From assembly GCA_036845785.1 (NCBI GenBank), contig DAIUDF010000001.1, positions 33,221-97,220 on the forward strand: a stretch of 64,000 bases of DNA, given 5' to 3'. This DNA comes from Candidatus Moraniibacteriota bacterium (lineage in GTDB: Bacteria; Patescibacteriota; Minisyncoccia; Moranbacterales; GWC2-37-73). The first letter of the stretch is position 1. Each line of letters starts with the position of its first letter. Position numbers and translations under genes: made by a program. Shown here one piece after another: positions 256 through 33,408 of this stretch. Under the pieces are notes generated by a model that searched no databases, had not been told where the DNA came from, and saw nothing but the letters and a program-made list of their open reading frames with translations.

Positions 256-319
256 AATATTTCACAAAATTACGCAGAAATTTACAGAACGACACAGAAA
301 ATTCCGTGTTTATTCTGTT

Positions 320-1099
320 TTATTCTGTTTTTTTCTGTTCATTAATTGTTTCTGCAATTTTCAAAAATTCAGATGGAACCAAACTTTCTCTTCCAACCAA
401 AACTCCGTCCATGCCTGGTTCCAAGCAAACCTGCTCTGCGGTTTTAGCTTTGACGCTGCCTCCGTATAAAATTTTTATCTTATTGGCAATTTCCGGACCG
501 TAAGCATGCGAAAGCAGTTTTTTGATCAATATTTTGGCTTCTAAAATTTCATTGCCAGTTGGAATTTCATCACTGCCAACAGCCCAGACCGGTTCATAAA
601 CAAGGACTATTGATTGTATTTTTGTCGAAGAAATTTCATCCAGTCCTTCAACCATTTGTTTCATAATCACATCCACAGTATTGCCAGACAATCTTTCTTC
701 TTTTGTTTCGCCGATGCAATAAACCGGCACCAATCCATTCTTGAGAGCTATTCTAATTTTCGCATTCGCAATTCTATTGTCTTCGGAAAAATATTTTTTA
801 CGCTCACTATGACCGATAATCACGTATTTGGCTCCGATGTTTTTTACCATCGCGGCGGAAATTTCACCGGTAAAAGATCCTCTTTCTTCCCAAAAAATAT
901 TTTGCGCTCCGACGGCTATTGCCTTTGATTTATTGTTTTTGACAAAGTTTTCAATGTGCACCGCCGGCGGGCATAAAACTATTTCTGTATCAGAAATATT
1001 TTTGTTTTTTAATTCTTTTTTGAAAGATTCAAGATACCGCTCACGTTCAGAAAGCGTCAAGAGATTCATTTTTAAATTGGCTATGATTAGTTTTTGCAT
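320..1099 (-). CDS. tpiA: triosephosphate isomerase
   Basis: The IIANLKMN, GAQN, IIGHSERK and CIGET motifs are present. The start is chosen at the internal MQKLIIANLKMN (cat at 1097-1099). The last codons are supplied by an intergenic repeat copy. Confidence 0.9.
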   Translation of the reverse strand: MQKLIIANLKMNLLTLSERERYLESFKKELKNKNISDTEIVLCPPAVHIENFVKNNKSKAIAVGAQNIFWEERGSFTGEISAAMVKNIGAKYVIIGHSERKKYFSEDNRIANAKIRIALKNGLVPVYCIGETKEERLSGNTVDVIMKQMVEGLDEISSTKIQSIVLVYEPVWAVGSDEIPTGNEILEAKILIKKLLSHAYGPEIANKIKILYGGSVKAKTAEQVCLEPGMDGVLVGRESLVPSEFLKIAETINEQKKTE

Positions 1100-2904: not shown

Positions 2905-3663
2905 TTATTTTTTAAATTCTTTTATTTTATATTGTCCGGTCATTAGACGCCATTTGGTTTTGAACAGATCAATCAAGACTTGAATGAATCCATTTGGTCC
3001 AGTCAGGCTGACGGTTGATCCTTCCTCATTCATCCAGCGCACCGGCATTTGTTTGACTTTAAAACCAAGCTTGTGAGCCAGAATAATAAGTTCAAAATCA
3101 AAACCGAAACGATCCACCACCATTCTCTTAGCAACTTCATGAGCAGCTTGACCAGTTAGCATCTTGAATCCGCATTGGGTGTCCGGATAGCTCCAAAGTC
3201 CTAAAACAATCCTGATCAGCCAGTTTCCTCCTTCGCCCATAACTTCACGATATTTAGGCTGGTGGATTTGAATGAAAGATCCTTCAATTTTTCGGGAGCC
3301 CACAATCACTTCATTGCCTTTTTCCAATTCCGGCAAAAATTTTTCCACATGAGTGATGGAAGTCGAACCGTCGGCATCCAAGAAAACCACATATTTTCCT
3401 TTGGATTCCAAAAGTCCCTGTCTCACCACATAGCCTTTGCCATGATTTTCCTTGTTGTTAATAACACGCAAATTATCAATTTGGGTTCCATAATTCTGAG
3501 CCACTTCGGCAGTATTGTCAGGAGATCCGTCAACTACCACGATTATCTCATGAGTATAATTTTTGTCTGATAAAAACCTGGAGATTTCCAAAAGATTTTG
3601 TCCAATGCGTTCCCCTTCTTTATATGCGGGAATAACAATTGAGAGATAAGGCTGATTTTCCAT
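2905..3663 (-). CDS. GT2 family glycosyltransferase (dolichyl-phosphate sugar transferase-like)
   Basis: LSIVIPAYKE...VVDGSPDNT...FLDADG shows the GT-A DXD signature. Confidence 0.8.
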   Translation of the reverse strand: MENQPYLSIVIPAYKEGERIGQNLLEISRFLSDKNYTHEIIVVVDGSPDNTAEVAQNYGTQIDNLRVINNKENHGKGYVVRQGLLESKGKYVVFLDADGSTSITHVEKFLPELEKGNEVIVGSRKIEGSFIQIHQPKYREVMGEGGNWLIRIVLGLWSYPDTQCGFKMLTGQAAHEVAKRMVVDRFGFDFELIILAHKLGFKVKQMPVRWMNEEGSTVSLTGPNGFIQVLIDLFKTKWRLMTGQYKIKEFKK

Positions 3664-4243: not shown

Positions 4244-4308
4244 GAATTTGATATATAATTACAAGTTAGTGTTAAAAATAAAAAACTGTTCAAAAAAGGA
4301 GATATGTA

Positions 4309-4647
4309 ATGAAAAATTTTCTTAAAGCTTCAGCGACTATTATTATGTTAGTATTGGTAATTGTCGGAGCGGGCTATACTTTATTTTATGATTCAACTGA
4401 TATATTCTATCACAAAGTTGAATCTAATAAAGAGAAGCTGACGGTAGGAGAATATCTTGAGAAAGACAATCTTCTCTCATCAGTAAAAATTACTCCCGAG
4501 TTGAGGCAAAAATTGGGAGAGGTAAGAATGTTCGTCGAAAAATCGGAGAAAGAACCTCCTTGTGAAAAAGGAGATGTAATGATTTCAATTGGAGGATCCA
4601 AAATTGAAAATATTCTTTTTATAAGGTTTACCAACAGTAAACCTTGA
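4309..4647 (+). CDS. hypothetical N-terminally membrane-anchored protein
   Basis: Strong SD (aaaggagatatgtaATG), a single N-terminal TM helix, and an intrinsic terminator immediately downstream. Confidence 0.6.
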   Translation: MKNFLKASATIIMLVLVIVGAGYTLFYDSTDIFYHKVESNKEKLTVGEYLEKDNLLSSVKITPELRQKLGEVRMFVEKSEKEPPCEKGDVMISIGGSKIENILFIRFTNSKP

Positions 4648-4666
4648 TCCCCCCGTTTTACCCCCC

Positions 4667-4710
4667 CCCCCGGCTAGCGTAATGCTACGTCCGGGGATTT
4701 TTTTATTTCA
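4667..4710 (+). terminator. intrinsic terminator after 4309..4647, preceded by a C10 homopolymer
   Basis: ccccggctagcgtaatgctacgtccgggg hairpin followed by a T8 run. The C10 tract is at 4661-4670. Confidence 0.6.
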
Positions 4711-5200
4711 AAAAACAATTTTGTATTTATAACACAACATTCGCCCGCTTTTCTTTCAAAAGAAAAGCGGACAGAAAAGAAACTTGCACCCCGATGAATT
4801 TCTGGGGCAAATTCTAAGCTCATTCGCTAAAAAATCTAACTCGCTTCACTCAGACAGAGATTTTTCTTAACGCTCACTCGCTTGAATTTGCTGACGAAAT
4901 TCATAGGGTGCGGAAAATGCAAAAATACAGAATTTAAAAATGCATTTTGTATTTCAATTCCGCCCGATGGAAGACGCCGCTACAAATTCTGATTTGCGAG
5001 CGTCTAAAAAATTTCTGTTTGAGTCACGCCTTGGCGGGACGAGTTATATTTTTTAGTGAGCAAATCTTGAATTTGTCGGTGGCTGCAACTGGGCGGAGAG
5101 TTTTCTTTCTCCACTTTCTTTTGCGGAAAAAGAAAGTGGAAATAATAATTTCAAAAAACTTTCCTGGATTCCCGCTTCCGCGGGAATGACAAATAAAAAG

Positions 5201-5965: not shown

Positions 5966-6214
5966 AATTTTTACAATAACTACTACATAAAAAATTATAA
6001 TAAACAAAATACAAAATGTTGAAGATACAATAACCAAGATAAAGTCTAAAGACACAAGATACAAGATACAAATCCCAAACAAACTTCAAATAACAAGTTA
6101 TTAATAACCAAAATTTGTAATTTTTGAATTTGATTATTGAATATTGTTTGTTTCTTGTTTCTTGGGACTTGTTTCTTGGCCGTGTTTCTTGGTTATTTAA
6201 AGTTGCTTTTTTGG

Positions 6215-6856: not shown

Positions 6857-6989
6857 TTTTTATAGTTAAAAATGCAAATATCAAAATGAAAAATTAACGA
6901 GTCGCTTTGCGATAACTAATTTAAATAGCCGCGGCAAAGTCACTCTTTAATTCTGATTTTTGATTTTTGATTTTTAAATTTTAAATTTT

Positions 6990-9199: not shown

Positions 9200-9230
9200 A
9201 TTTTTTCTGTTTGGTCGTTTATTCATATTG

Positions 9231-9322
9231 CTATCACAGAATGACACAGAAATCTACGGAATGACACAGAAAAATTCTGTGTATCTGTGTTTATTCTGTT
9301 TTCTTCCGTGTTTTATCTGTTT
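9231..9322. repeat. 92-bp intergenic repeat family R1 (CACAGAA element), 5 copies: 262-345, 9231-9322, 11041-11135, 12111-12205, 12571-12665
   Basis: Near-identical CACAGAATGACACAGAAAnTTACGGAATGACACAGAAAAATTCTGTGTATCTGTGTTTATTCTGTTTTCTTCTGTGTTAAATCTGTTT, containing the palindrome cacagaaaaattctgtg. Confidence 0.85.
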
Positions 9323-9671
9323 AAAATTTTAATCCGCCTTCTCTGGCGCCTTCAGCCAAAGCTTTTACTTTTCCGTGATATTTATAACCCGATCGATCAA
9401 ATTTCACAGTCTTGATTTTGGCTTCCAGACATTTTTTGGCCAGCAATTTTCCCATATCTTTAGCGCCTTCTACGGTATTTTTAGCTTTCTTTATTTCAGA
9501 AAGTTTAACTGAAGCCAAAGTTTCACCTTTCACGTCATCAATAATTTGCGCATAAATTCCACGCAAACTTTTGTGCACAGCCAAGCGCGGACAATTTGCA
9601 TCACCCGAAACTTTAGCGCGGATTCTTTTCTTGCGTCGTAATCTTGTTTTATTGTTATTTACTTTTGACAT
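9321..9671 (-). CDS. rplR: 50S ribosomal protein L18
   Basis: RLRRKKRIRAKVSG...PRLAVHKSLRGIYAQIIDD. Start at MSKVNN (cat at 9669-9671), with an alternative start at 9707. Confidence 0.9.
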   Translation of the reverse strand: MSKVNNNKTRLRRKKRIRAKVSGDANCPRLAVHKSLRGIYAQIIDDVKGETLASVKLSEIKKAKNTVEGAKDMGKLLAKKCLEAKIKTVKFDRSGYKYHGKVKALAEGAREGGLKF

Positions 9672-9709
9672 AATAGTTTCTAATAAAATTACTCTTTGAT
9701 TCGCCAAGG

Positions 9710-10246
9710 CTATTTAGCTGCCTTCTTTCCTTCTTTTCTGCGGACATGCTCGCCGACATATTTAAATCCTTTGCCTTTATACGGTTCAACTGGTTTTAGG
9801 GCTCTGACATTGGCGGCAAATTGCCCCACCTTGCATTTATCAACCCCGGAAATTGTCATGACGTTATTTTCAATAGTAACTTGCAAGTCTTCCGGCACAT
9901 CGACAACAACTGGATGAGAAAAACCCAGAGCTAGATTTATTTTCTTTCCGGCCACTGACATGCGAAAACCAACGCCATTAAGCTCTAATTGTTTTTGAAA
10001 ACCCTTAGCTACTCCTTCAATCATATTATTGATAATGCGAGTTGTCGTTCCCCAAACAGCTGGAGCATTCTTGCTTTTGCCCGTTTTTTCAACCAAAACT
10101 TCATTATCTTGAATTTTAACAACCACATCAAAATGATGCTCAAAAGTCATCGTTCCTTTGGCGCCTTTTATTGTTACTACATTTTTATCCGTTGTAACAG
10201 TTACTCCTTGCGGAATGCTTATTGGTTTTTTTCCTATCCTAGACAT
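9710..10246 (-). CDS. rplF: 50S ribosomal protein L6
   Basis: MSRIGKKPISIPQGVTV signature. Confidence 0.95.
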   Translation of the reverse strand: MSRIGKKPISIPQGVTVTTDKNVVTIKGAKGTMTFEHHFDVVVKIQDNEVLVEKTGKSKNAPAVWGTTTRIINNMIEGVAKGFQKQLELNGVGFRMSVAGKKINLALGFSHPVVVDVPEDLQVTIENNVMTISGVDKCKVGQFAANVRALKPVEPYKGKGFKYVGEHVRRKEGKKAAK

Positions 10247-10372
10247 AATAATTAATTCAAAATTTAAATCTCAAAATATAAACTTACGGAGTCGCTACGC
10301 GACATTTTTATAAACATGAGCGGAGCGAATTCCTAAATTTTGATTTTTTATTTTTGATTTTTTAATTTTACT

Positions 10373-10777
10373 CTACCAAACTTCGCAAATTATTTCCCCT
10401 CCGATTCCCATTTTTCTGGCTTCATCTGCCGGCATAATGCCTTTTGAAGTTGAAACTATGGAAATTCCATATCCATTCTTAACTCTCTTCAGATCAGTTT
10501 TCTTTGCATATATGCGCTGTCCTTGGCGGCTGATTCTTTTGATTTCTCTGATGGCCGGATTCTTTTCAGTATTGGAAACGACATCATATTTTAAAACTAT
10601 TTTTATTAAAGATATATTTCCTTCAGTTTCTTCGCTGACTGATTCAATAAAATTCCTTTGTTCTAAAATTTTGGCAATAGCCATTTTGAGACGCGAAAAC
10701 GGCACCAGCACTTCCTTGTGTCCGGCTCTTTGCGCGTTTCTAATTCTTGTAAGCATGTCTGCTATTGGATCTAACAT
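10373..10777 (-). CDS. rpsH: 30S ribosomal protein S8
   Basis: DPIADMLTRIRNA signature. Confidence 0.95.
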   Translation of the reverse strand: MLDPIADMLTRIRNAQRAGHKEVLVPFSRLKMAIAKILEQRNFIESVSEETEGNISLIKIVLKYDVVSNTEKNPAIREIKRISRQGQRIYAKKTDLKRVKNGYGISIVSTSKGIMPADEARKMGIGGEIICEVW

Positions 10778-10850
10778 ATCTTTTTTTAATTCAAAATTTA
10801 AAATTCAAAATTCAAAATTATAGTGTTGTTTCTGATTCTTTAATTTATTG

Positions 10851-11036
10851 CTACCAACTGCTCTTCTTCACTCCCGGCAACTCTCCTTTGCTGGCTAATT
10901 CCCTAAAACAGATTCTGCAAATATCGAAAGCACGAAGATACCCATGCTTTCTTCCGCAACGCCAACAGCGGCGCACAATACGGGTTGAAAATTTAGGTTT
11001 CTTTTCTGCTCTAGCTTTTGTAGATGTCTTTGCCAT
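10851..11036 (-). CDS. rpsZ: 30S ribosomal protein S14 type Z (zinc-binding)
   Basis: 61 aa starting at [16 protein letters not shown], with [38 protein letters not shown]. cat at 11034-11036. Confidence 0.9.
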
Positions 11037-11122
11037 TTTTGTTGTCACAGAATAACACAGAAACTTACGGAATGACACAGAAAAATTCTGTGTATCTGTG
11101 TTTATTCTGTTTTATTCCGTGT

Positions 11123-11671
11123 TTAATCTGTTTTAATTGGGAATCCTAATAATTTAAATAATTCAAAACCTTCTTCCTGTGATTTCGCGTCAGTCGAAAC
11201 TGTTATTTGCAGACCGAACACGTGTCTTGTTTTTTCTGGAGAAATTTCGGGAAAAATCAAATGTTCTTTAATGCCGATATTCATGTTTCCTCCTTTGTCT
11301 ATTGATTTTCTGTTAATTCCCTGAAAGTCTCTGGTTCTTGGCAATGTCGCGTTTATCAGACGATCAATAAATTGCCACATTCTTTTTCCTCTGAGTGTCA
11401 CCTTGACTCCGACTTCCATTCCTTCCCTAACTTTGAAACCGGAAATGGCTTTGCGAGCTTTGGTTTTTAACGGTTTTTGTCCTGTAATCGCAGCAATTGA
11501 ATTTATGACTTCTTCAACCTTGTCATTCTCCTTGGTAATTTTTCCAATTCCAACATTAACAACAGCCTTTTTGATTCGAGGCATCGCCATTGTGCTTTTA
11601 TATCCAAATTTCTTCTTCATTTCTGGAGTAGCTATTTTGGTATATTTTTCTTTTGTTGAAATTATATTCAT
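11123..11671 (-). CDS. rplE: 50S ribosomal protein L5
   Basis: L5 signature motifs. Its final codons overlap the end of a repeat copy. Confidence 0.95.
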   Translation of the reverse strand: MNIISTKEKYTKIATPEMKKKFGYKSTMAMPRIKKAVVNVGIGKITKENDKVEEVINSIAAITGQKPLKTKARKAISGFKVREGMEVGVKVTLRGKRMWQFIDRLINATLPRTRDFQGINRKSIDKGGNMNIGIKEHLIFPEISPEKTRHVFGLQITVSTDAKSQEEGFELFKLLGFPIKTD

Positions 11672-11685
11672 AATAATATTATTCT

Positions 11686-11800
11686 AATCTGCCCGCCTAG
11701 ACTCACGGAGACAATCGTTCATCGACGCGAGGCTGGCTAATTAATCCTGACCTACAAATTTGTTTTTACTGAATTCATTCGTAGATTTGAATCGTGTTTA
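11686..11800. repeat. repeat family R4, two copies (11686-11800 and 18333-18460), upstream of rplE and rplC
   Basis: ATCTGCCCGCCTmGACTCACGGAGACrATCGTTCATCGACGCGAGGCTGGCTAATTAAT followed by a ctacaaa...tttgtag hairpin. Confidence 0.8.
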
Positions 11801-12106
11801 TTAAAATTCTTTCTTGCACTTCTTGCACACGCGAACTTTTTTGCCATTGGCAAATGCATATCCAACCCGCGTAGGCTTTCCGCAGCCAGGACAGATAACC
11901 ATGGCATTGGAAACGCTAAACGCAGCCGGAACTTCAACACGCTGTCCTTTCTCTCCTTCCCGGCGGGGTTTTTTGTGCCTTTTTACTATATTCATCTTCT
12001 CGACAACAATTTTTCCTTCACTTGGAATAGTCCGGATGACTTTGCCTTCCTTTCCTTTGTCTTTGCCGGTAATTTTTTTAATTGTATCTCCTTTTTTAAT
12101 CCTCAT
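11801..12106 (-). CDS. rplX: 50S ribosomal protein L24 with C-terminal Cys4 zinc-ribbon-like extension
   Basis: KOW domain MRIKKGDTIKKITGKDKGKEG plus a C-terminal CPGCGKPT...CKKCKK tail. Confidence 0.9.
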   Translation of the reverse strand: MRIKKGDTIKKITGKDKGKEGKVIRTIPSEGKIVVEKMNIVKRHKKPRREGEKGQRVEVPAAFSVSNAMVICPGCGKPTRVGYAFANGKKVRVCKKCKKEF

Positions 12107-12202
12107 ATAACTATCACGGAATTACACAGAAACTTACGGAACGACACAGAAAAATTCTGTGTATCTGTGTTATTCTGTTTTCTTCTGTGTTAATTTTGTT
12201 TA

Positions 12203-12568
12203 TTACAATACTTCTGGTGCTAATGAAATTATTTTAGTATATCCTTTCTCTCTAAGCTCTCTGGTAACTGGTCCGAAAATTCTGGTTCCTTTTGGTTCTT
12301 TGCCATCCAAGATCACGGCTGCATTCTCATCGAATCGGATGTATGACCCATCTTTTCTCCGGAAAGATTTTTTCTGTCGGACAATCACTGCTCTGACCTT
12401 ATCTCCTTTTTTGATCATGCCTCTGGGTTCTGCCGATTTAACACTGCAAACAATAATATCCCCGATGGAAGCATAGCGTCTGCGGCTGCCTCCAAGAACC
12501 TTGAAGCATTCAATGGTTTTTGCTCCAGTGTTGTCAGCTGCTCTTAATCTTGTTTCTGCTTGAATCAT
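12203..12568 (-). CDS. rplN: 50S ribosomal protein L14
   Basis: [17 protein letters not shown] signature. Confidence 0.95.
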
Positions 12569-12662
12569 ATTGCTATCACAGAATTACACAGAAGCTTACG
12601 GAATGACACAGAAAAATTCTGTGTATCTGTGTTTATTCTGTTTTCTTCTGTGTTAAATCTGT

Positions 12663-12893
12663 TTATGCTATTTTATGGCTCTTTCCCTTGCTTATCGGCT
12701 TGCACTGCACAAACTCAACCGCATCTCCTTTTTTGAACTTGTTTTCAGCGTCATGTACTTTATATTTCTTGGTAGACAGATACTTTTTCAGATATTTCGG
12801 ATGCGTCTTAAAAGTTTGGACAGCCACTACAATTGTCTTGTCCATTTTATCACTGATAACTATTCCCTTCTTTTTGGCTAACTTTTTTGCCAT
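12663..12893 (-). CDS. rpsQ: 30S ribosomal protein S17
   Basis: GIVISDKMDKTIVVAV signature. Confidence 0.9.
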   Translation of the reverse strand: MAKKLAKKKGIVISDKMDKTIVVAVQTFKTHPKYLKKYLSTKKYKVHDAENKFKKGDAVEFVQCKPISKGKSHKIA

Positions 12894-13070
12894 AATTGTC
12901 TACGAGCGGAGCGAGTAGCTACAATTATGAGCATCCCGCACCAATTCTTTATTTAAACTTAATCTTATATCTTATTAAAGCCGCAGGCGAATTCCGTGAA
13001 AAGTTTTCAATCTTTTATTAAAAACTTTATTCGGAATTTGGTGCGGGACAACAATTTATTTTTAATCTAA
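12894..13070. repeat. about 165-bp intergenic element family R2 with 15-bp inverted repeats. Copies at 12894-13070, 14497-14665, 15612-15768 and 36697-36874, with divergent copies at 41640-41790 and 60725-60765
   Basis: GAGCGGAGCGAGTAGCTACAAAnnGAGCATCCCGCACCAATTC...CCGCAGGCGAATTCCGTG...TTCGGAATTGGTGCGGGAT. The IR atcccgcaccaattc/gaattggtgcgggat is perfect. Confidence 0.8.
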
Positions 13071-13678: not shown

Positions 13679-13842
13679 ATGCGTTTCACTAAATTCAAAA
13701 TTTAAAATTCAAAGTTCAAAATTATGGAGCTCGCCTCGATTCGACAAGGTATGTCATCGAGTCGAAGCGGGTCGCTACGCGACATTTTTTATAAACATGA
13801 GCGAAGCGAATTCCTAAACTTTTAACTTTTCACTTTTAACTT
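13679..13842. repeat. intergenic repeat family R3 (AATTCAAAATTTAAAATTCAAAATT module plus GTCGCTACGCGAC hairpin plus GAGCGAAGCGAATTCCTAAA). Copies at 10247-10372, 13679-13842 and 17637-17752, with partial copies at 6857-6989, 10778-10850 and 36097-36228
   Basis: Shared blocks upstream of rplF, rplP, rplD, secY, rpsH and fusA. Confidence 0.7.
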
Positions 13843-14496: not shown

Positions 14497-14665
14497 GCAA
14501 TTTTTGTCTGCGAGCAAGGCGAGTAGCTACAAAAATTAGCATCCCGCACCAATTCGCAATATTAACTTTCTATTATTTCCGGTTAAGCCGCAGGCGAATT
14601 CCGTGAAAAGTTTTCAATCTTTTATTAAAAACTTTATTCGGAATTTGGTGCGGGATAACTTCTTA

Positions 14666-15611: not shown

Positions 15612-15768
15612 TTGTCTGCGAGTGGAGCGAGTAGCTACAAATGAGCATCCCGCACCAATTCTTTAATTATTCTTTAAATTATATTATTACTGAGCCGTTA
15701 GGCGTTTCCGTGCACCAAGCTTTCTTTTGAAAAAATCTGTCTTCGGAATTGGTGCTGGGATTAATAAT

Positions 15769-17636: not shown

Positions 17637-17752
17637 AATATTAATTCAAAATGCAAAATTTAAAATTCAAAATTATAGAGTTTTGCTTCGCAAAATATTT
17701 TTTAAAAATATGAGCGAAGCGAATTCCTAAACTTTTAACTTTTCACTTTTAA

Positions 17753-18319: not shown

Positions 18320-18591
18320 AAAATATTATTCAAATCTGCCCGCCTCGACTCACGGAGACGATCGTTCATCGACGCGAGGCTGGCTAATTAATTCTAATCT
18401 ACAAACAATTCGTTGATTGGAATGATATTTGTAGATTGGGATAATTCTGGCAATAAAAATACTGGCCTCAGCCAGCATCATTCCGATCTATCGGAATTTA
18501 GCTAGTTGAGTATCCCCGAACTGCCGAGGACTTTAACTAGTAATATTCACATGTGCCCCATTTGCAGCGGGGCTCCGCCAAAAGCGGATAA

Positions 18592-20216: not shown

Positions 20217-20407
20217 ATTGATTTTTTTCGCGGCCAAAGGTTTTTTACTTTGGCACCACGCGATTAATTAAGATAATTTAATTATAAAATTATTGCATCT
20301 GTTTACTATACACTAAATTCCTTTTTCAGGCAAATTTAAAAAATCCGTCTGTGGAAAATTCAATACATGACTCATTCTACACGACCTATAAAATCTGTCA
20401 ACCCCGC

Positions 20408-20473
20408 ACTAACTTTAGGCAAGTGTACAACACTGGATTGCTTTCAGCAAGCCTAAAGTTAGTGCGGGGTCAA
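20408..20473. repeat. hairpin element family E with 12-bp terminal inverted repeats CCCCGCACTAAC/GTTAGTGCGGGG, two copies (20408-20473 and 59746-59810)
   Basis: The arms are identical and the interiors unrelated. One copy sits at the tuf-side edge of the island. Confidence 0.7.
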
Positions 20474-20612
20474 GCCCCCGCCAATTTGGCACTTTTGTCT
20501 TACCTTAGCCAATAACCAACCCTCAGAAAACCTAGGAATTTGAAGATTTTACTCACTATATCCACATTTTTAATACGTAGCGAAGTAAGTATTAAATTAT
20601 TCCGCCCAGAAA

Positions 20613-21032
20613 TTAGATTTTTTTTCTGAAGAAAATTGAAACAATGAAAATTAAAATGAAAAAGATCGAACCCATGACGCATGTCGGCAGGCCGAAGAAA
20701 TATGCGCTCGGTCCATTTTCAAAAAACAAGGACAATTCTCCCCAAGAAAAATAGCCGGCAAAAAGAACTCCCAAAAATGAAAACAAAAATAAAAGATTGG
20801 CCAAACATTTTGTCGCCTGTTCCTTGAAAAAAAGGACGACGGAAAAAATAAAAAGGAGGCAGAACATGACAAAGCCGTAGTAGCAGGCCGGAAAGCCCAG
20901 GAACAGCGGGCAAGTTTCCCCGAAAGCGCAGACAGATGAAAACATTTTGACTCCGCTCATATAGCCGGAAAACAATACTCCGCCCAGCGAAGCCAGCAAA
21001 AAGAAAATTTTAAAATTTTTGTATTTATCCAT
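20613..21032 (-). CDS. hypothetical polytopic membrane protein with internal 2-TM duplication
   Basis: Two repeated LGGVLFSGYMSG / LGVLFAGYFSWG modules, each followed by Cys residues. Start set at MDKYKNF (cat at 21030-21032). Confidence 0.5.
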   Translation of the reverse strand: MDKYKNFKIFFLLASLGGVLFSGYMSGVKMFSSVCAFGETCPLFLGFPACYYGFVMFCLLFIFSVVLFFKEQATKCLANLLFLFSFLGVLFAGYFSWGELSLFFENGPSAYFFGLPTCVMGSIFFILIFIVSIFFRKKI

Positions 21033-21093
21033 TTTATTAAATAAATAATTAATTAAGTAATTATTTCTGATCCGTTTTTCTTTTTTTACAATT

Positions 21094-21588
21094 TTATATT
21101 TCGGCAAAAAATATCATATAATTATGCCCGAATTTCTTGGCGCATTTCGGACAATAGGCATAGTGGATGTAATAATCCTTGGCCTTTTTCCCTGTCTCGG
21201 CCAGATATCCATCCATAACTTTGATAAATTTAGGAATATCATTATAGCCGCCATCAAAAACTCTGGAGATAAAATTTCCGGAAATCACAACGTTGTTTTC
21301 ATCCGGAACGTCTTTTTCCACCGCTACATATATCTCGCCCCTAAAAGGCGTCGGATCGCGGAACAATATCAGGGTGTCTTTTTTGTCCGGCGCGCCCGCC
21401 CCGACCTTTTCCACAGCCGTCCACATTCTGGTTATTTTTTTGCCGATCATCGGCGGAAAAGGGATATGGAAAAACTCCGGCATGGAATCTTTGATGAATT
21501 TTTTATTGTCCCAGCTCAATGTTTGCTTGTCCCATTTTTCTACACTAAATTCGGGACAGCATTCTTGTTTTTGATTTTCGTTGTTCAT
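21094..21588 (-). CDS. hypothetical protein
   Basis: 164-aa ORF. Its conserved GGCGGGGTAAGTAATTAAT leader motif is shared with two other island genes. No confident domain was recognised. Confidence 0.45.
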   Translation of the reverse strand: MNNENQKQECCPEFSVEKWDKQTLSWDNKKFIKDSMPEFFHIPFPPMIGKKITRMWTAVEKVGAGAPDKKDTLILFRDPTPFRGEIYVAVEKDVPDENNVVISGNFISRVFDGGYNDIPKFIKVMDGYLAETGKKAKDYYIHYAYCPKCAKKFGHNYMIFFAEI

Positions 21589-21686
21589 AGTTTTATTAAT
21601 TACGTAATTAATTACTTACCCCGTCAATTATATCTGATCAGAAAATGATTATCTTTATTTTTCCTTTGCTCGATTTTATTTTTTAT

Positions 21687-22964
21687 CTATTTTTTCGCTC
21701 TTTCTGATTGTTTAATTTTATTTATTATTACTTGCATTTTATCCCAATCTTTAAATTTTTTCCTAGTTAAAAAAAATTTTTTTAATTCTTCCTCGGGATT
21801 TACCGCTAAACTATATTTTTTGTGTGTCATTCTTTTTAAAATGCAGTGGATAATATTTCTTTCTGAAGAATAGGTCAGGGATGCCGGCATTTTTAAAATT
21901 GCATTTCTTGTTTCTTTAATATCATTGTCAAAAATCATGGTTAGAGTTTGAAAATTTCTTTTAGAAGTTTGGTAAGACTGATGGAAAAGCGATGGCTGTC
22001 TTAATGCAATTTTAATAAAATCTTCTTTGGAAAGTCCTAATATCTCGACTGAATTTTCAATATTTTTAACAATAGTCATGGGAGATTGATAAAAAAGCTG
22101 TGGATGCTTTAACGCAACTTCCAGAAATTCTTGTTTATCAATGCTTATAAGCTTTGATGTACTTTCAATATTATTATTTATCGTGCTTGGGTTAAGATAA
22201 AGAATTTGAGGAGCTTTAAGAGAGCTTTTTATAAACATCTCTTTTTTGATCCCTAATAATTCGGCCGAATTTTCAGCATTATTATTTATAGTTTCGGGAT
22301 ATTGAACTAAGAGCGATGGTCTTTTAAGAGCTGCGTTGAGAAATTTTTCTCTCGAAATACCCAACAATTTAGCTGAATTTTCGATATTACTATTGATAGT
22401 TTCTGGGAGCATACCAAAAAGTGACGGGTGTTTAATTGCAGCTTTAATAAATTCTTCTTCTGATATTCCTATTAGCTTAGCTGAATTTTTAATATTACTA
22501 TCGATAGTTTCTGGAGATTGACAAAAAAGTTGTGGCGTTTTAAATATGCACTTTTTCCATTCATCTGCTGACACATTAAAATTACGCATACTTCGCAAGA
22601 AATTATATTTGTATTTGTCTGATTTAAGAGTTTCCGGACGACATCTAAGAATTGCTTCGTTTGAAATAATCTTATTTACTTCATCATCTGTGAAAACAAT
22701 TTTTTGTTCTTCTTTTTGATTATCGGCAGGAATAGTTATTTTAAATTCGCAAAAAACTTTCCTCAGCTCAATTTTCCTTCTAGCTTTTGGACCTTGTTGA
22801 CCATTTTCTTGTCTATCTCTTTCTTCTTGCAGCGTTATTTCAGATTGAGCATAATCATCTCTGGAAGGCTCTCCGCTTTCATTTCTTTTCAGCTTCAAAT
22901 CAAGAGCTTTATCTCTTATTACATGTGCCTCATTTTCTGCTTTTTCAAACAAATACTTCTCCAT
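21687..22964 (-). CDS. tandem-repeat protein with about seven 36-aa mTERF-like repeats
   Basis: Repeats of the form F.KAA.KHPSLF.Q.PETINSNIENSAKLLGIS.EEF. The DNA shows matching 108-bp periodicity across 21950-22560. Confidence 0.6.
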   Translation of the reverse strand: MEKYLFEKAENEAHVIRDKALDLKLKRNESGEPSRDDYAQSEITLQEERDRQENGQQGPKARRKIELRKVFCEFKITIPADNQKEEQKIVFTDDEVNKIISNEAILRCRPETLKSDKYKYNFLRSMRNFNVSADEWKKCIFKTPQLFCQSPETIDSNIKNSAKLIGISEEEFIKAAIKHPSLFGMLPETINSNIENSAKLLGISREKFLNAALKRPSLLVQYPETINNNAENSAELLGIKKEMFIKSSLKAPQILYLNPSTINNNIESTSKLISIDKQEFLEVALKHPQLFYQSPMTIVKNIENSVEILGLSKEDFIKIALRQPSLFHQSYQTSKRNFQTLTMIFDNDIKETRNAILKMPASLTYSSERNIIHCILKRMTHKKYSLAVNPEEELKKFFLTRKKFKDWDKMQVIINKIKQSERAKK

Positions 22965-23014
22965 AAAAAATTTACTGTCTGTATTAATTACTTACTCCGC
23001 CAATCAGATTAATT

Positions 23015-23066
23015 ATACAATTCTTGGCTGTTTTTATTATATCACCAAATTAAAAAGGCCGATTTC
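23015..23066 (-). promoter_or_regulatory. conserved promoter/leader element F, two copies (23015-23066 and 24160-24215), with extended -10 TGATATAAT
   Basis: AATTATACAATTCTTGGCTGwTTTTATTATATCACCAAATTAAAAAGGCCG on the plus strand. The minus strand reads ttggTGaTATAATaaaa, then GGCGGGGTAAGTAATTAAT just before the ATG of the lipoprotein and repeat-protein genes. Confidence 0.45.
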
Positions 23067-23101
23067 ACATCCCCCTTCGGCATAAATTCAGGGGGATGTA
23101 A

Positions 23102-23374
23102 TCATTTTTTGCTAAAGAGACTTATCCGACGTTTTTCAACATAGACAATTTGCCACCATTTCTGGCCGATGAAATAGCCCGCAGCTACGCCCAAAAGCAG
23201 AAGGATGAAAGTTAGCATTGGCCAGACATATCCCCCGTTTCCAAGAATTGACGGGCCAGTACCTGATTTCAAAAGACTCTTAATATACCACAATTCCAAT
23301 CCGGCACGAGCAATCACCGAAAGCAGAATAAACAAAACAATGCTGGCAATTAAATATATTGTTTTTTTGGTCAT
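23102..23374 (-). CDS. small two-TM membrane protein
   Basis: 90 aa with two hydrophobic helices. Confidence 0.5.
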   Translation of the reverse strand: MTKKTIYLIASIVLFILLSVIARAGLELWYIKSLLKSGTGPSILGNGGYVWPMLTFILLLLGVAAGYFIGQKWWQIVYVEKRRISLFSKK

Positions 23375-23457
23375 AAATTTAATACCCTTCTTAATAATTA
23401 TAATTAATTTATACTTATTCCGGAATTCTTGAGAATACCGGAATAGTGTAATTTTGA

Positions 23458-24111
23458 TTATTTGTAATTTTTGATCGCTTCGCCTATCTTTATTGCAAAA
23501 TCAATGAATTTTCCGTTCTCAATCGTATTTTTTGAACTTGGCTTGATTGAAATAAATTTTTCCGGACTAAGTACAAAATAAATTTCACTGACAAGATCTC
23601 CTTGTGTAATTACTACATTATCCATAGGAATTTTAGGATTTTTTTCTACCTTATCTCCGGTCTGTTGATAAAAAAGTTTTTGATTTTCAATTTTTAAATA
23701 TTCCAGATTAAACAATAAATATTCCTTATCATTAAGATAATAGGAACAATTATAAAGACTTGCATATTTTGGCAGTTCGATTTTTACTACTTTTTGGCCT
23801 AAGGCATTTTCCACAAATTCTTTAGTAAACTGACCGCAGATATCTTCAACAATATAATAACTTTTGTCCTGACGACTTGGTTCTCCTGGATATTCCACAA
23901 AACAATTTTTAAGACGCTTTCCTGGTTCGCCATAACCTTCTATTGATACATTTTCTTTTTCGCAAGCTCCGTCTAAATTATCTTCAGTTGCTGGGGCTGA
24001 CGCTACACTTTCCGCATTATTATTTTTTTCAGCTTGATTGTTATTTGCACAACCGGAAAGAAAAATGGCTCCAACAATTAACATCGGCAGAATGATTATT
24101 TTTTTGTTCAT
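23458..24111 (-). CDS. putative lipoprotein
   Basis: Signal peptide with an LSGC lipobox. Confidence 0.55.
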   Translation of the reverse strand: MNKKIIILPMLIVGAIFLSGCANNNQAEKNNNAESVASAPATEDNLDGACEKENVSIEGYGEPGKRLKNCFVEYPGEPSRQDKSYYIVEDICGQFTKEFVENALGQKVVKIELPKYASLYNCSYYLNDKEYLLFNLEYLKIENQKLFYQQTGDKVEKNPKIPMDNVVITQGDLVSEIYFVLSPEKFISIKPSSKNTIENGKFIDFAIKIGEAIKNYK

Positions 24112-24265
24112 GGTTTTATTAAATAAATAATTAATTACTTACCCCGCCAAGCATGTTTAATTATACAATTCTTGGCTGATTTTATTATATCACCAAATTA
24201 AAAAGGCCGCTTTTAAACTTGTCTTGCGGCCTTTATAGATTGGAAAAATTTCCTTTTTCAACTCC

Positions 24266-24760
24266 TTACGTCCTTATAATCTTGTCTATAGCCATTTGCT
24301 CAGCGTTTTTGAGGATTTCCTCAATAAAAGGATCCCTGCGAAAAATGAGATGATCGGGCGTGTTATCGAAAACAAATGTTCTCCCAGTGAAAGGAAGAAA
24401 GGTTTCCCATCTATCCCCCTTAATCTGCATCGGGACTCCTCTCGTCGATTCAAGACCGCATTCTGCTGCAATTTTTTCTACCGCATCCCTACATTCAGCA
24501 GGGACGCTCATTACAGTCCAAATTTTTTTAGCCCAACGGATCGTGTGCATGAAAAAAAGCGCGCTCTGTTGGCTTTGCGGATTGAAATGCTTATGCTTCA
24601 CAGTCAGCATGCATTCCCTGATGCCAGGCGTATATGGTTCTTCTAATCCTACATACTGAATGAATCGCTTATTATTCAAAAGATCATTAAATTCTTCAGT
24701 CATAATGCCTATTGCCTGGGTTTTTGTTTCTTTTTTTAACAAGCTCTTCAATCGTATCAT
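24266..24760 (-). CDS. hypothetical protein
   Basis: 164-aa ORF with locally higher GC than its neighbours. No domain was recognised. Confidence 0.45.
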   Translation of the reverse strand: MIRLKSLLKKETKTQAIGIMTEEFNDLLNNKRFIQYVGLEEPYTPGIRECMLTVKHKHFNPQSQQSALFFMHTIRWAKKIWTVMSVPAECRDAVEKIAAECGLESTRGVPMQIKGDRWETFLPFTGRTFVFDNTPDHLIFRRDPFIEEILKNAEQMAIDKIIRT

Positions 24761-24895
24761 TTGAACCTCCTTTCATTAAATATTTGAGAGTTATTTTCTT
24801 TTTATAAGTTGTTAAAGAAGTGTTAAAAATATCACCACCTGTACATACCTAGGTACGCTCGCCCCGTAGCAAGCGAAGCTTTGCTTCTGGGGTAA

Positions 24896-25474
24896 TTAAT
24901 TATTTATTCTTTCAATCTCTTTTAACAAAAAATTTAAATCTTTTGACAATGGATTTCCTTTCCATCTTTTCAGGATTGATTTGATAGCCATTTGCTGATG
25001 ATTTAAGATTTTTTCTTTTGGCGCATTAAATCTGGCAAAAACTTCCTCTCTGTAACGATTATAATCATCCAACAATTCAGAAACGTTAGCAATAATATCA
25101 GCCGATTTAATTAGTAAAGAATCATGCGAAAAATTCTTTATGTGTTCCAATGCTTGCTTTTTCCTTTCCTCCCATGGTAATTTTTTCTCAATCTCTGTTA
25201 CACTCAAAACTCCTCTTGCAACTTTTTTACCGAATCTTTCTTCCAGCATTTTGGCATTTACTTTTTTCTGATCTATAGAATCCTCAATCGTATCGTGCAA
25301 AATTCCAGCCACAACTATGTCTTCTTTGGCTTTGATCAGTGAGAGGATAATCCCTACAGTTAATGGATGGGTTATATATGCGATATCTTTGCCTTTTCTT
25401 TTTTGCTTCTGATACACTTCGTGTGTTTTAGTGGCAAATTTTATCGCCTTTTGTATTTTTGGAGTATAGATCAT
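24896..25474 (-). CDS. HD-domain metal-dependent phosphohydrolase
   Basis: ITHPLTV...AGILHDTIED matches the HD motif. Confidence 0.7.
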   Translation of the reverse strand: MIYTPKIQKAIKFATKTHEVYQKQKRKGKDIAYITHPLTVGIILSLIKAKEDIVVAGILHDTIEDSIDQKKVNAKMLEERFGKKVARGVLSVTEIEKKLPWEERKKQALEHIKNFSHDSLLIKSADIIANVSELLDDYNRYREEVFARFNAPKEKILNHQQMAIKSILKRWKGNPLSKDLNFLLKEIERINN

Positions 25475-25571
25475 AATTTATTGTATACTTAGAATACTTT
25501 AAATTTTTTTGCATTCACCTCCCCCTTCGGCATAAATTCAGAGGTACGTAATTAATTACGTAAATTCAAAT

Positions 25572-26591
25572 TTATTCCTCATTATTTCTAATTCTTCCCC
25601 AATTTATTCTATCCAATTCTGGTTTTAATCTTGATACTAATAAATCTAATCTATCCAAAATTTCATTCACATCTTCTTGATCAAATTCAATTTTATTTGT
25701 TGTAGAATAAACATTATATAATTTTGACCAATTTTTGCCCCACTTAGCTTTTAACTTAAAAATTTTATCACTCTTAGATAAATCTTTTTGCACATTCTTC
25801 ATTATTTTAAGTAATTTATTTCTTCTTTTCTTAGTAAAATCATGAATCAAATGGGATTTAGCAAATTCAACATGAAAAGCTATTTCAAACTGCGCTTTAT
25901 CGCTTGCTTTAGTTATTTTTTTAGAAGTTATTTCAAAATGTAAAAATGGATTTCCTATTTTTTCTTTAATTTGAATCATATGTCTAAACTGAGTCCTGTT
26001 TTCCATTAGTCCTTCAGCAATTGGCTGATTTAAAAATTTATTTAGAATTTCTTGTAAAATTTGCTCTCTGGTATAAATTTTTCTCAACTTAATTAGCAGC
26101 GGTTTAGCTGGAATACCTAATTCACATTTTTTACTATTCGCAAAAAAAACTCCTATAGAAGATCCGAAATCACCTAGATTTTTTAACATTAATTTAGCCG
26201 AAGGTAATAATTTGTCCTTTTTTTCTAGAGGTAAAGTTACAAAAAAACAAGCACGGATGGCTTTATTTTCAAGAAAAGTTGAAACATCTTCTAGCTCCAA
26301 TCTTTCTTGTTGAGTTATTTTTTCAAGAAATTCATAACCTTTCTCCTGGATAACTGACATATAGGCAATAAGCTGGCCAACTGCATGGCCGATCGAAGCA
26401 ACATTTCCAGATCTTTTCCCTTCACTAATATAGAAACATTTTTCGTTTTGATTATAGGCCAGAACATCAAGGAAGCCAGCTGAAAATTTAAATTCCGTAA
26501 CAGAAAAATTACATTTGAATTTACTTTTGAAATAATTTTTAGTCGGCTGATTTAATTGTTTGTCTTCTGGGTTGTTCATAAGTTCTGGCAA
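25572..26591 (-). CDS. hypothetical protein with N-terminal PD-(D/E)xK nuclease-like motif
   Basis: FLDVLAY...ISEGK fits a D...ExK arrangement. It is the last gene of a tightly packed six-gene operon. Confidence 0.45.
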   Translation of the reverse strand: MPELMNNPEDKQLNQPTKNYFKSKFKCNFSVTEFKFSAGFLDVLAYNQNEKCFYISEGKRSGNVASIGHAVGQLIAYMSVIQEKGYEFLEKITQQERLELEDVSTFLENKAIRACFFVTLPLEKKDKLLPSAKLMLKNLGDFGSSIGVFFANSKKCELGIPAKPLLIKLRKIYTREQILQEILNKFLNQPIAEGLMENRTQFRHMIQIKEKIGNPFLHFEITSKKITKASDKAQFEIAFHVEFAKSHLIHDFTKKRRNKLLKIMKNVQKDLSKSDKIFKLKAKWGKNWSKLYNVYSTTNKIEFDQEDVNEILDRLDLLVSRLKPELDRINWGRIRNNEE

Positions 26592-26607
26592 GTAATTAAT
26601 TACGTAA

Positions 26608-26793
26608 TTATCTATTATATTTTTTATTACAAGATGGACAATATTTCCAATTTCCTGTTATCTTAACACCACAAATACATTTTCTCATTCCATATCTCGC
26701 CTTATTTTCTTTTTGCACTTTTTCCCAGCAGTCATTACAATATATACTTTTTATATACTTTGATTGATAACCACATTTTCTACATTTTCCCAT
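26608..26793 (-). CDS. small zinc-ribbon protein
   Basis: 61 aa containing CxxC...CxxC...CxC...CxxC. Confidence 0.5.
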   Translation of the reverse strand: MGKCRKCGYQSKYIKSIYCNDCWEKVQKENKARYGMRKCICGVKITGNWKYCPSCNKKYNR

Positions 26794-26808
26794 AAATTTT
26801 TTATCCTA

Positions 26809-27912
26809 TTATTTCCCCGATTTAGTTCGATTGTCTTGTTTGCAAAGCATCTGACAATTTTCAGCAATTGTTTTTCCGCCCTCATGCCAAGGTTTGATAT
26901 GATCAGCTTCCATCTCGCCTATTTTAAAATGTTCACTGCATTTCGGACAAATTCCATTTTGTCTTTCATAAGCTTCACGCTTCATTTTGTCAGTAAACGC
27001 CCGAATCGAAAGATATTTTTCCTGTCTGGTTAAAACATACGGATAAATTCCGGATTTTTTCGTCACATCTTCATCCTGCATTAAATCTTTGATTTCGGTT
27101 TCAAGTTTTTTAGTATCTAGTTTTTTATCTTTAAATTCATTATATAATTCACCCCACTGCACGTTTTTCATTTCTTTGCGATAATTTATGAAAGTTTTTC
27201 TGGCCCACTCAATAACATTTTGAAAATATTCCCACAATTCTTCGGCATTTTTGTCGTGCTGATGTTTGGCCATATAGTCTTCAATTTTTCCATCATTTAT
27301 CCATGAAATTGCAGTTTCTAAATATTCTTGCCGAATTGGCGAACCACTAACTAACCCACCTCCATCATTGGCCAGAAGATAAGCTGCGCAATTTGATTTA
27401 CTGAATTTTAGTTTTGCATCAGAAAGCCACGGACCAGTATAGACAGCATTTCTAAGTTCTTGGTCAGTCAATTTCTCGCCGGCAATATTAATAATTTTAA
27501 ACCAATCTAATCGCTCTTTGTCACTGCCTTCGCAAAAATAGATCATGAGTTCATAATTCAGAATCTGTTCTTGTTCTTCTTTGGTTAGATTGTGAAACGC
27601 AGCTAGTCTACCGTTGAATTCAACAGAATAATTACCTTCTTTATATTCCGCAATACTAATTGTTCTTTGTTGACCATCAAGCACTTCAAAATTTCCCTGA
27701 TCAGTTTTGACCCAATACATTACATTAAGTGGAAAACTGTTTTTGATTGTTTCAATCACAGCATCGCGCTGTTTGCCGGTGTATACAAACTCCCGTTGAT
27801 ATTTCGGACGAATATCCAACTTGCCGCCATAAGCCACCACGCCTTCTTCGTGACTGTCCTTATAGCCATTGATAACGTCCCGCACCGAAATTCTTTGTAG
27901 TTCAATTTTCAT
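26809..27912 (-). CDS. DUF262 (ParB-like, DGQQR) plus HNH nuclease, GmrSD/SspE-like defense nuclease candidate
   Basis: VLDGQQRTISI is the DUF262 hallmark. The C-terminal ADHIKPWHEGGKTIAENCQMLCKQDNRTK is an HNH motif. Confidence 0.75.
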   Translation of the reverse strand: MKIELQRISVRDVINGYKDSHEEGVVAYGGKLDIRPKYQREFVYTGKQRDAVIETIKNSFPLNVMYWVKTDQGNFEVLDGQQRTISIAEYKEGNYSVEFNGRLAAFHNLTKEEQEQILNYELMIYFCEGSDKERLDWFKIINIAGEKLTDQELRNAVYTGPWLSDAKLKFSKSNCAAYLLANDGGGLVSGSPIRQEYLETAISWINDGKIEDYMAKHQHDKNAEELWEYFQNVIEWARKTFINYRKEMKNVQWGELYNEFKDKKLDTKKLETEIKDLMQDEDVTKKSGIYPYVLTRQEKYLSIRAFTDKMKREAYERQNGICPKCSEHFKIGEMEADHIKPWHEGGKTIAENCQMLCKQDNRTKSGK

Positions 27913-27918
27913 ATTATT

Positions 27919-28413: not shown

Positions 28414-28451
28414 AAAATTCCTTATTATTTTTTTATTTTTAATTAAAATAT

Positions 28452-28730: not shown

Positions 28731-28753
28731 AGATATTTTTAATTATCGGACAA

Positions 28754-33396: not shown

Positions 33397-33408
33397 TCGG
33401 TTTATTTG

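Follow-up and report, generated by a model that had tools for sequence, protein, structure and literature searches.

Short repeats that settle between the genes of bacterial operons have been described in several systems, and here we compare these with a repeat found in a stretch of 64,000 nucleotides (nt) from Candidatus Moraniibacteriota bacterium (assembly GCA_036845785.1, contig DAIUDF010000001.1, positions 33,221 to 97,220; hereafter the window). The repeat, which we call the CACAGAA element, is a foldback that occupies four spacers of the spc operon and the spacer between tpiA and fba. Few parts of bacterial genomes are as compact and as conserved as the ribosomal protein operons, which form the backbone of phylogenomics in the Candidate Phyla Radiation (CPR). 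On balance, we favor the view that the element is a non-coding copy-and-paste foldback of the Moranbacteria/Parcubacteria lineage, with a structure like that of miniature inverted-repeat transposable elements (MITEs) or REPINs and a placement like that of mycobacterial interspersed repetitive units (MIRUs). Its family is one of a large set of iterated-unit foldback families, whose members have spread into 5′ leaders and the junctions between stop and start codons, above all those of the S10/spc and str operons.

MIRUs are reported to be mobile, to insert at start codons and to have a minimal effect on expression (Supply et al. 1997, as relayed in the passages of PMC12548453 and PMC3184786 that deal with them). 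According to these same passages, they are intra-operon repeats of 40–100 bp that are co-oriented, whose ends overlap or abut stop and start codons and for which empty sites exist in relatives, and in all these respects the CACAGAA element is similar. The passages also mention a small open reading frame (ORF) coupled at −4 nt to the downstream gene, tandem variable-number repeats (VNTRs) and short flanking direct repeats. The CACAGAA element, in contrast, is a long foldback of phased hexamers in a CPR host poor in Shine–Dalgarno (SD) motifs, and we found no direct repeats. Nor does it hold a MIRU-type small ORF: no ATG-initiated ORF spans the element, which is 86–96 nt long (long copies) and has TAA, TAG or TGA codons in all three sense-strand frames.

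MITEs such as Correia/NEMIS and ERIC are short non-coding elements of ~100–150 bp with terminal inverted repeats, which lie between genes, are co-transcribed as hairpins and show presence/absence polymorphism (review PMC3184786). The CACAGAA element is likewise short and non-coding, has inverted arms, is dispersed (five copies in the window, ~19 loci in all) and is present in some relatives and absent from others. Classical MITEs have a defined target-site duplication (e.g., TA), are found in either orientation, number tens to hundreds per family and can usually be traced to a recognizable parent insertion sequence. Here, on the other hand, the orientation is locked, a tail runs up to the ATG, the copy number per family is low, the families are many, and neither a duplication nor a parent element was found.

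REPINs are hairpins of ~70–110 nt made of two inverted units, i.e., extragenic palindromes that are mobilized by RAYT transposases (REP section, PMC3184786). Single-strand, strand-specific transposition of this kind would explain the hairpin, the missing target duplication and the orientation bias of our element. The arms are different, however, being arrays of four to five short phased units instead of two REP hairpins of 20–40 nt with a GTAG-type head, and no RAYT/Y1 transposase was seen among the window ORFs scanned. We know of no REPs that fill the spacers of ribosomal operons or abut start codons. The Rickettsia palindromic elements (RPEs) are a further parallel: in the account that PMC3184786 gives of Ogata et al. 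2000, they are palindromic repeats of a reduced genome that also occur in frame in protein genes. The in-frame arrays that we describe below consist of one arm type (direct units) and not of a whole palindrome, have no sequence relation to RPEs, and the window element touches only the last two to six codons of rplE and tpiA.

For the coupling of genes across a hairpin, phage f1 offers a precedent. Between its genes VII and IX a hairpin ends just upstream of gene IX, whose expression depends on coupling, and the upstream stop codon must lie at or within the hairpin (PMC12548453). That is a single, experimentally tested case without repeats, whereas coupling at our loci would follow from geometry alone. 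The element was also compared with the TIGR arrays of CPR bacteria and phages, which consist of 36-nt units (edge repeat, spacer A, loop repeat, spacer B) beside a Nop-domain Tas gene (PMC12045711). We rejected this candidate: the period is 10 nt (with a super-period of 20–21 nt), the copies are near-identical without variable spacers, and no Nop domain occurs in the 20 window ORFs scanned against Pfam. The searchable literature yielded no prior description of intergenic palindromes or MITEs in CPR/Parcubacteria and, within that literature, the clade-wide colonization of ribosomal operon spacers is previously undescribed.

From position 1 to 20300 every gene of the window lies on the minus strand. 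The tuf gene and the S10 and spc operons follow in canonical order (with no L30 gene between rpsE and rplO), then adk and map and, further on, tpiA and fba. The CACAGAA/TTCTGTG foldback occurs in this region as follows, with minimum free energies (MFEs) of the predicted RNA folds in kcal/mol.

9227–9320 (94 nt), minus strand: copy 1, rplR–rpsE spacer; five ACRGAA units, a TTT loop, four TTCYGT units and the tail GATAGCAAT; rpsE ATG at 9226; MFE −26.3, z −3.4; covariance-model score 116 bits; sense-strand sequence taaACAGATAAAACACGGAAGAAAACAGAATAAACACAGATACACAGAATTTTTCTGTGTCATTCCGTAGATTTCTGTGTCATTCTGTGATAGCAATatg.
11037–11131, minus strand: copy 2, rplE–rpsZ spacer (11037–11122, 86 nt); tail GACAACAAAA; rpsZ ATG at 11036; rplE stop at 11123–11125, within the first unit (ACAGAT + TAA); MFE −28.0, z −4.5.
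12107–12202 (96 nt), minus strand: copy 3, rplN–rplX spacer; tail GATAGTTAT; rplX ATG at 12106; MFE −28.1, z −4.1; covariance-model score 122 bits.
12569–12662 (94 nt), minus strand: copy 4, rpsQ–rplN spacer; begins immediately 3′ of the rpsQ TAA; tail GATAGCAAT; rplN ATG at 12568; MFE −33.0, z −5.7.
256–343, minus strand: copy 5, tpiA–fba spacer (256–319, 64 nt); short subtype of 4 + 4 units with degenerate outer 3′ units; tpiA stop at 320–322, its last codons overlapped by the 5′ units; fba ATG at 255–253; MFE −23.3, z −4.6; covariance-model score 85 bits.

An earlier note on this DNA, made from the letters and their ORFs, had reported five near-identical copies in these spacers. All five are present, but only four are long and near-identical, and the fifth is shorter. 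In a repeat search the four long copies form one family with 87–92% identity to the reference (the identity of copy 3 falls to 69% solely through a 1-nt register shift), and the short copy is located at 252–343. The core CACAGAATTTTTCTGTG has four exact occurrences on the sense strand and, with up to three mismatches, eight matches against 0.5 expected, each site being counted on both strands. CACAGAA itself is found 21 times, where 6.7 are expected.

The 5′ arm consists of five ACRGAA units (four in the shorter subtype) and is followed by a loop of 3–5 nt and a 3′ arm of four TTCYGT units, with a phase of exactly 10 nt; the arms can also be read as two copies of a ~21-nt unit. What the earlier note took for a perfect palindromic core is a 7-bp inverted repeat around a 3-nt loop, the innermost part of four to five plus four phased units. 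Between the last unit and the ATG lies an A/T-rich tail, family-specific in sequence and conserved up to the ATG. It measures 9–10 nt in 14 of 18 copies, a narrower range than the 5–25 nt first given, and where the outer units have decayed, the ATG nevertheless lies ~45 nt from the loop. The predicted RNA fold is an imperfect hairpin of ~30 bp (MFE −23 to −33 kcal/mol and z −3.4 to −5.7 for the five window copies), in which 98.2% of the cells of a 16-copy alignment are paired and the start region is unpaired in most copies.

At the other end, the 5′ foot abuts or overlaps the upstream stop codon, as had been proposed, copy 4 standing directly after the rpsQ TAA. The proposal that the repeat encodes C-terminal codons holds as well. 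The EQKKTE codons of tpiA fall in repeat units, and the last two codons of rplE (T-D) fall with the stop in the first unit, where relatives end in S/N-E. The rplE protein has not been lengthened by the repeat, since at 182 aa it equals that of relatives.

Copies elsewhere were sought by scanning genome and metagenome contigs with a pattern of the 3′ arm, after which a covariance model was run over 250 kb of fetched loci (L-numbers below are labels of these loci or contigs). In total, ~19 distinct loci were found in several Moranbacteria/Parcubacteria genomes. All of them (~19/19) point with the downstream gene, all covariance-model matches being stronger on the sense strand, and 18 of the 19 abut an ATG. 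The downstream genes include rpsS (L010, after rplB), tsf (L019, after rpsB), rplK (L023, after nusG), rplC (L032) and atpC (L031, after atpD, with the 3′ arm only), as well as porD (after porG), hypA, two kinds of M50 peptidase, a PfkB kinase (after eno) and a glycosyltransferase. The copies are enriched in highly expressed translation, glycolysis and ATP-synthase operons. Several make up the entire 5′ untranslated region (UTR); in L027 and L002 they directly follow a TATAAT-like hexamer, in L014 and L032 a terminator-like hairpin. A mini version of 2 + 2 units lies upstream of nusA in L014. The one copy not beside an ATG is the second of L032, which follows rpsJ and stands in front of a conserved structured RNA.

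In the Parcubacteria metagenome-assembled genome (MAG) JBAZSS01, direct arrays of the unit ACAGAATGACACAGAA lie in frame in three ORFs, where they encode QNDTE repeats and the inverted arm is absent.

L002, ~2230–2350: linker of FtsK.
L014, ~3430–3530: inside the N-terminal domain of NusA.
L020, ~3050–3200: C-terminal tail of an S1-domain protein.

We count these in-frame units as selfish behavior.

The S10/spc region was compared among seven genomes of relatives; the nearest L5 proteins are at most 83% identical. At the five positions of the window, CACAGAA is found in none of the seven. Two relatives (L045/L050 and L046/L051) have spacers of 1–35 nt at all five positions, except that tpiA–fba of L050 is occupied by another family. 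In the remaining five relatives most spacers are filled, namely 11 of 14 (L010), 9 of 12 (L044), 18 of 19 (L047), 15 of 19 (L048) and 14 of 19 (L049). The orthologous spacers are therefore either compact or occupied by other families, which answers whether relatives share them and bears out the suggestion of the earlier note that a MITE colonized the operon: the copies hardly differ from one another, other genomes have the family at non-orthologous sites, and the corresponding spacers are empty or belong to another family. That note had also reasoned that a purely selfish MITE should be both absent from orthologous spacers and scattered at random with respect to gene starts. The former is what we see, but the latter is not, given that ~19/19 copies share their orientation and 18/19 stand at an ATG. 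From this non-random placement we conclude that either insertion follows a precise mechanism or some constraint connected with gene expression is at work.

The fillers of the relatives belong to more than 10 other families with a shared build: a stop codon, three to five iterated short units, a loop, three to five inverted units, an A/T tail and the ATG. Their unit periods are 7–11 nt and their sequences unrelated, as the unit pairs illustrate (ACGAAT/ATTCGTA, CGCGAAT/ATTAGAGAT, TTAGCTT/AAGCTAA, GTCCATAAA/GACTTGATA, CATAGAGCA/TGCTCCATG, TGTTCTA/TAGAACA, AATAACA/GTTATAA, TTTTCAA/TTAGAAA and GAACAAT/TTACTGA). Three further families of the window (B, C and D, listed below) are part of the same set. 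Copies of one family tend to occupy neighboring spacers and can be identical (rplF–rplR and rpsE–rplO in L048). Across the eight genomes, 53 of 86 spacers of 60–200 nt fold as a single hairpin (z ≤ −2), with a median start 3 nt after the stop and a median end 9 nt before the ATG. The hairpin repeats that fill spacers are 80–180 nt long, and within one Moranbacteria clade almost every S10/spc spacer can be filled, by more than 10 repeat families with the same strict stop/start geometry. The orientation lock is not universal, since L048 has a B-family element that is inverted. Elsewhere in the window such elements are rarer and lie in the str operon (36097–36228 and 36697–36874) and at a few other sites, and most other intergenic regions resemble ordinary terminator-plus-promoter regions.

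An RNA function, as the earlier note had also suggested, was approached from several sides. Rfam returned no match at the gathering score or at E ≤ 5, apart from a tRNA and chance hairpins. The covariation analysis that the note had called for (RNAalifold and pair counting) found no pair with changes on both sides in the 16-copy alignment, which is weak negative evidence because the search pattern partly fixed the 3′ arm. The variable unit position is A63:G11 in the 5′ arm and T52:C16 in the 3′ arm, and it changes independently in the two, so the unit consensus is kept irrespective of the pairing partner. Selection on the sense-strand RNA was rejected, the MFE comparison showing no sense bias: the sense RNA is the more stable one in only 6 of 18 copies of the CACAGAA family and, when the families are pooled, in 29 of 53 cases, so the symmetry of the palindrome lies at the DNA level. 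A known autoregulatory leader of ribosomal proteins can be set aside too, as there is no Rfam match, the positions are not orthologous and compensatory changes are lacking.

Neither do the spacers look like signals for transcription. There is no sigma-70-like site on the sense strand of the four spacers, which speaks against a promoter, and a simple scan calls terminator-like structures in the four long copies on the antisense (plus) strand only, which speaks against an intrinsic terminator in sense orientation. The absence of SD motifs at the copies is as claimed, yet it is no feature of the element. Of 64 genes, 5 are preceded by the SD-like GGAG/GAGG/AGGA, where the background is 12%; being SD-less is therefore a property of the genome, although a few genes do carry GGAGG. 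This agrees with the reported absence of the anti-SD from roughly half of the Parcubacteria, with h26 conserved (PMC9297842). In short, the element is neither an SD substitute nor a regulator specific to ribosomal proteins. With no compensatory changes, no sense-fold advantage, no Rfam match and an SD absence that is not specific to it, a cis-acting coupling or regulatory RNA was not demonstrated.

Altogether, we regard the element as probable mobile DNA which the host tolerates and may even exploit, and not as a regulator dedicated to the ribosome. It is dispersed, has been gained or lost between relatives and is strictly oriented with transcription. It would be co-transcribed within the operon mRNA and could persist because its geometry is harmless: the hairpin would hold stop and start adjacent and leave ~9 unstructured A/U-rich nt before the AUG. 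A ribosome that terminates at the 5′ foot would melt the outer helix, so that translational coupling may survive, as an RNA-unfolding model would have it. In the opposite orientation the element would resemble an intrinsic terminator and probably be purged; the orientation lock may thus be due to the polar effect that inverted insertions would have.

Several observations weigh against this view. No consistent direct repeat was found in the flanks or between filled and compact spacers, the relatives being too diverged for an exact comparison of empty sites; on the left the flank is usually TAA(A) and on the right it is the family-specific tail plus ATG. No transposase (Y1 included) occurs among the 20 window ORFs scanned, and no autonomous partner was seen. 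More than 10 families with few copies each, often in adjacent spacers, are atypical of classical MITEs and would need many transposase specificities or a copying process based on structure. The conserved tail up to the ATG and its constant length are not easily explained by passive tolerance alone, selfish insertions are normally rare in highly expressed operons, where these are enriched, and transcription and folding of the element in vivo are predicted rather than observed. As for a phage origin, a scan of viral contigs gave no matches.

The competitor that survives best, possible though clearly less probable than mobile DNA, is an RNA module under selection that acts in cis and serves internal initiation or coupling in a lineage poor in SD motifs; the order of stop, hairpin, 9 nt and AUG would itself be the function. 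The base of the hairpin at about −10 might dock where the SD:anti-SD helix would sit on the 30S platform, or the hairpin might gate the AUG until the upstream cistron has been translated. Such a module would account for the fixed tail length and strict orientation at ~19 loci, for the recurrence of one geometry (hairpin feet at medians of 3 nt from the stop and 9 nt from the ATG) in more than 10 unrelated families, for the preference for ribosomal protein, tsf, atp and glycolytic operons, and for start regions predicted to be unpaired in most copies, and it would suit a genome with rare SD motifs in a group that often lacks the anti-SD (PMC9297842). However, close relatives translate the same genes from hairpin-free spacers of 1–35 nt, and numerous operon genes of the same genome have no such hairpin. 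Moreover, compensatory changes and a sense-strand folding advantage are missing, one copy (L032, after rpsJ) lies away from an ATG, unit arrays also lie within ORFs and one B-family element is inverted. A more far-reaching version, which we rate slightly lower still, makes the stop, iterated-unit hairpin, ~9 nt of A/U and AUG a selected and interchangeable intercistronic translation device of an SD-poor CPR clade. Unrelated families would have converged on it or been propagated by it, with the helix in the SD-helix pocket of the 30S platform or with initiation that depends on the upstream cistron. The constant tail length, the geometry common to unrelated families and the enrichment in highly expressed operons are the reasons why we retain a functional reading, if only as a minority view.

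The choice between these readings matters. If merely tolerated, the elements define a neutral form of insertion inside an essential polycistronic mRNA of an SD-poor organism; if used, they would represent a new way of organizing internal translation initiation. Should the device be a selected one, mobile DNA would supply ready-made initiation cassettes for ribosomal operons.

Less likely than a selected module is a role in the processing or stability of the mRNA, in which the ~30-bp hairpins would segment the operon transcript as sites for RNase III or another nuclease, or as barriers to 3′ exonucleases. Repeated RNase III sites between the early genes of phage T7 and REP hairpins in E. coli operons are known analogues. 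A long imperfect duplex is predicted in every copy, the elements lie exactly between cistrons throughout the S10/spc and str operons of several genomes, and they are not terminators in sense orientation, all of which would fit. The compact relatives, however, manage without hairpins, and the loci in which the element by itself makes up the 5′ UTR (L027 and L002 behind a TATAAT-like hexamer, L014 and L032 behind a terminator-like hairpin) have no cistrons to keep apart. Structural covariation is absent as well, and cleavage at the hairpins is a proposal.

Quite improbable, in our view, is an array of protein-binding sites at the DNA level, where ACRGAA hexamers, one per 10 bp and in two inverted blocks, would be bound by a multimeric protein (a transposase, a response-regulator-type factor or a modular repeat protein) and would act as a mobile operator that joins growth genes into one regulon. 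The exact 10-nt phasing and conserved hexamer core point that way, and so do the A/G variation at unit position 3, independent in both arms, and the symmetry of the strands in folding energy. A mTERF-domain protein with five to six near-identical repeats is, in addition, encoded 1.5 kb upstream of tuf. Yet the other families, with periods of 7–11 nt and unrelated sequences, offer no common site, an operator would not be expected to keep its distance fixed to the ATG instead of a promoter, the spacers have no promoter-like site, and the mTERF link is one of proximity only, within a strain-specific island.

The operon is present in the MAGs GCA_964453005.1 and GCA_022710305.1. Finally, an assembly artefact (a repeat that was collapsed or wrongly joined in a metagenome contig), named in the earlier note as a possible refutation and made conceivable by contig L026, which joins rplN to an unrelated M50 peptidase gene within the element, is as good as excluded, because six independent assemblies (JGI, ENA and NCBI samples, with different assemblers) reproduce the canonically ordered operon at 99.96–100% identity over 12–18 kb with the copies present in each.

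The remaining foldback families of the window fill other spacers of the same operons or lie outside them.

17637–17752, 13679–13842, 10247–10372, 10778–10850 (3′ arm only), 6857–6989 and 36097–36228: family B, which fills further spacers of these operons; built from an A-rich heptamer array (AAAAGTT/AAAAATC), GGAATTCGCTTCGCTCATG and GTCGCGTAGCGAC motifs, a TATAAT-like hexamer and a TTTTGAA array ending just before the ATG.
12894–13070, 14497–14665, 15612–15768 and 36697–36874: family C (TCCCGCACCAAATTCCGAAT ... AATTGGTGCGGGATGCTCAT ... GTAGCTACTCGCTCCGCTCGTAGACAA), in constant orientation and ending 2–9 nt before the ATG.
11672–11800 and 18320–18405: family D (GCCAGCCTCGCGTCGATGAACGAT.GTCTCCGTGAGTC.AGGCGGGCAGATT.GAATAATATT), upstream of rplE and rplC; a diverged copy lies in rplD–rplW of L047.
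5969–6214, 1762–1836 and 62206–62374: CAAGAAAC / GTATCTTG foldback family, outside the ribosomal operons.

The 3′-arm-only form of family B at rpsZ–rpsH is conserved in L045 and L046. Family C also occurs in L044, L047 and L048, and its rplB–rpsS position is shared with L044. The sites of the CAAGAAAC / GTATCTTG family are adk–map, upstream of a gene for a PF06695 membrane protein and upstream of the gene at 60772–62205.

Some consequences are practical. The repeats may give rise to chimeric joins in metagenomes, as in contig L026 (Ga0116153_10041350), where the sequence switches inside the CACAGAA element at ~683–760 from the rplN–rplX spacer to the M50 peptidase gene, either as an assembly chimera or as a repeat recombinant. 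Gene callers, moreover, miss or mis-start small genes. The 61-aa rpsZ (10851–11036 of the window, minus strand, and loci L038–L043) is absent from public gene calls, some of which place an antisense ORF of 96 aa across the CACAGAA copy instead, and the starts of rplB, rplP, rplE and rpsE beside repeats are called inconsistently.

The M50 peptidase gene of the window has a different cassette as its leader (40968–41060, minus strand; ATCCGAAAGCGCGC...TTTCGTAGATTCGTA...). An 81%-identical allele (L027/L030/L034) and a distant ortholog in a Parcubacteria MAG (L002, 7425–7530) carry the CACAGAA element, and the flank upstream of the leader is ~99% identical. We rejected a cassette exchange between the window and L030: the leader is wholly different, but the whole gene is an 81%-identical allele beside a variable region, so such an exchange is inseparable from a larger recombination. 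Purifying selection, as judged from the 94%-identical contig L035, was likewise rejected, since the differences form one recombination tract in tpiA. All ORFs that the window has on its plus strand lie in a strain-variable segment (37585–40281), and one of them weakly matches a ParB helix-turn-helix; in contig L030 ~1 kb of unrelated sequence takes the place of this segment.

Between tuf and fusA (~20300–34000) lies an island of ~14 kb, where the compact relatives L050 and L051 have only 1–2 kb. Besides the mTERF-domain protein (21687–22964; five to six near-identical repeats of ~36 aa), it carries genes for a GmrSD_N + HNH nuclease, an adenine methylase of the EcoRI type, an HD protein and DUF3800, Fic and GNAT proteins. 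Repeat proteins of the mTERF kind are unusual in bacteria, and this one, speculatively, might be a partner of the unit arrays as a modular nucleic-acid binder.

Between map and ruvX, the public gene tables leave the operon strand without a call for almost 1 kb (4244–5200). This gap contains a G11 homopolymer, several G+C-rich hairpins (e.g., GTCATTCCCGCGGAAGCGGGAATCC) and antisense ORFs, and may be a decayed gene or another mobile remnant. Lastly, the rpsJ–rplC spacer (18320–18591) contains a structured RNA at ~18450–18540 (minus strand), in which ACTAGTTAAAGTCC, a hairpin and GGATACTCAACTAGC are followed by a second hairpin and the intrinsic terminator GCTGGCTGAGGCCAGTATTTTT. It matches no Rfam family, is conserved in five genomes (the window, L010, L032, L045 and L046) and shows compensatory changes in 5 of 21 pairs, which makes it a candidate ribosomal-protein attenuator.

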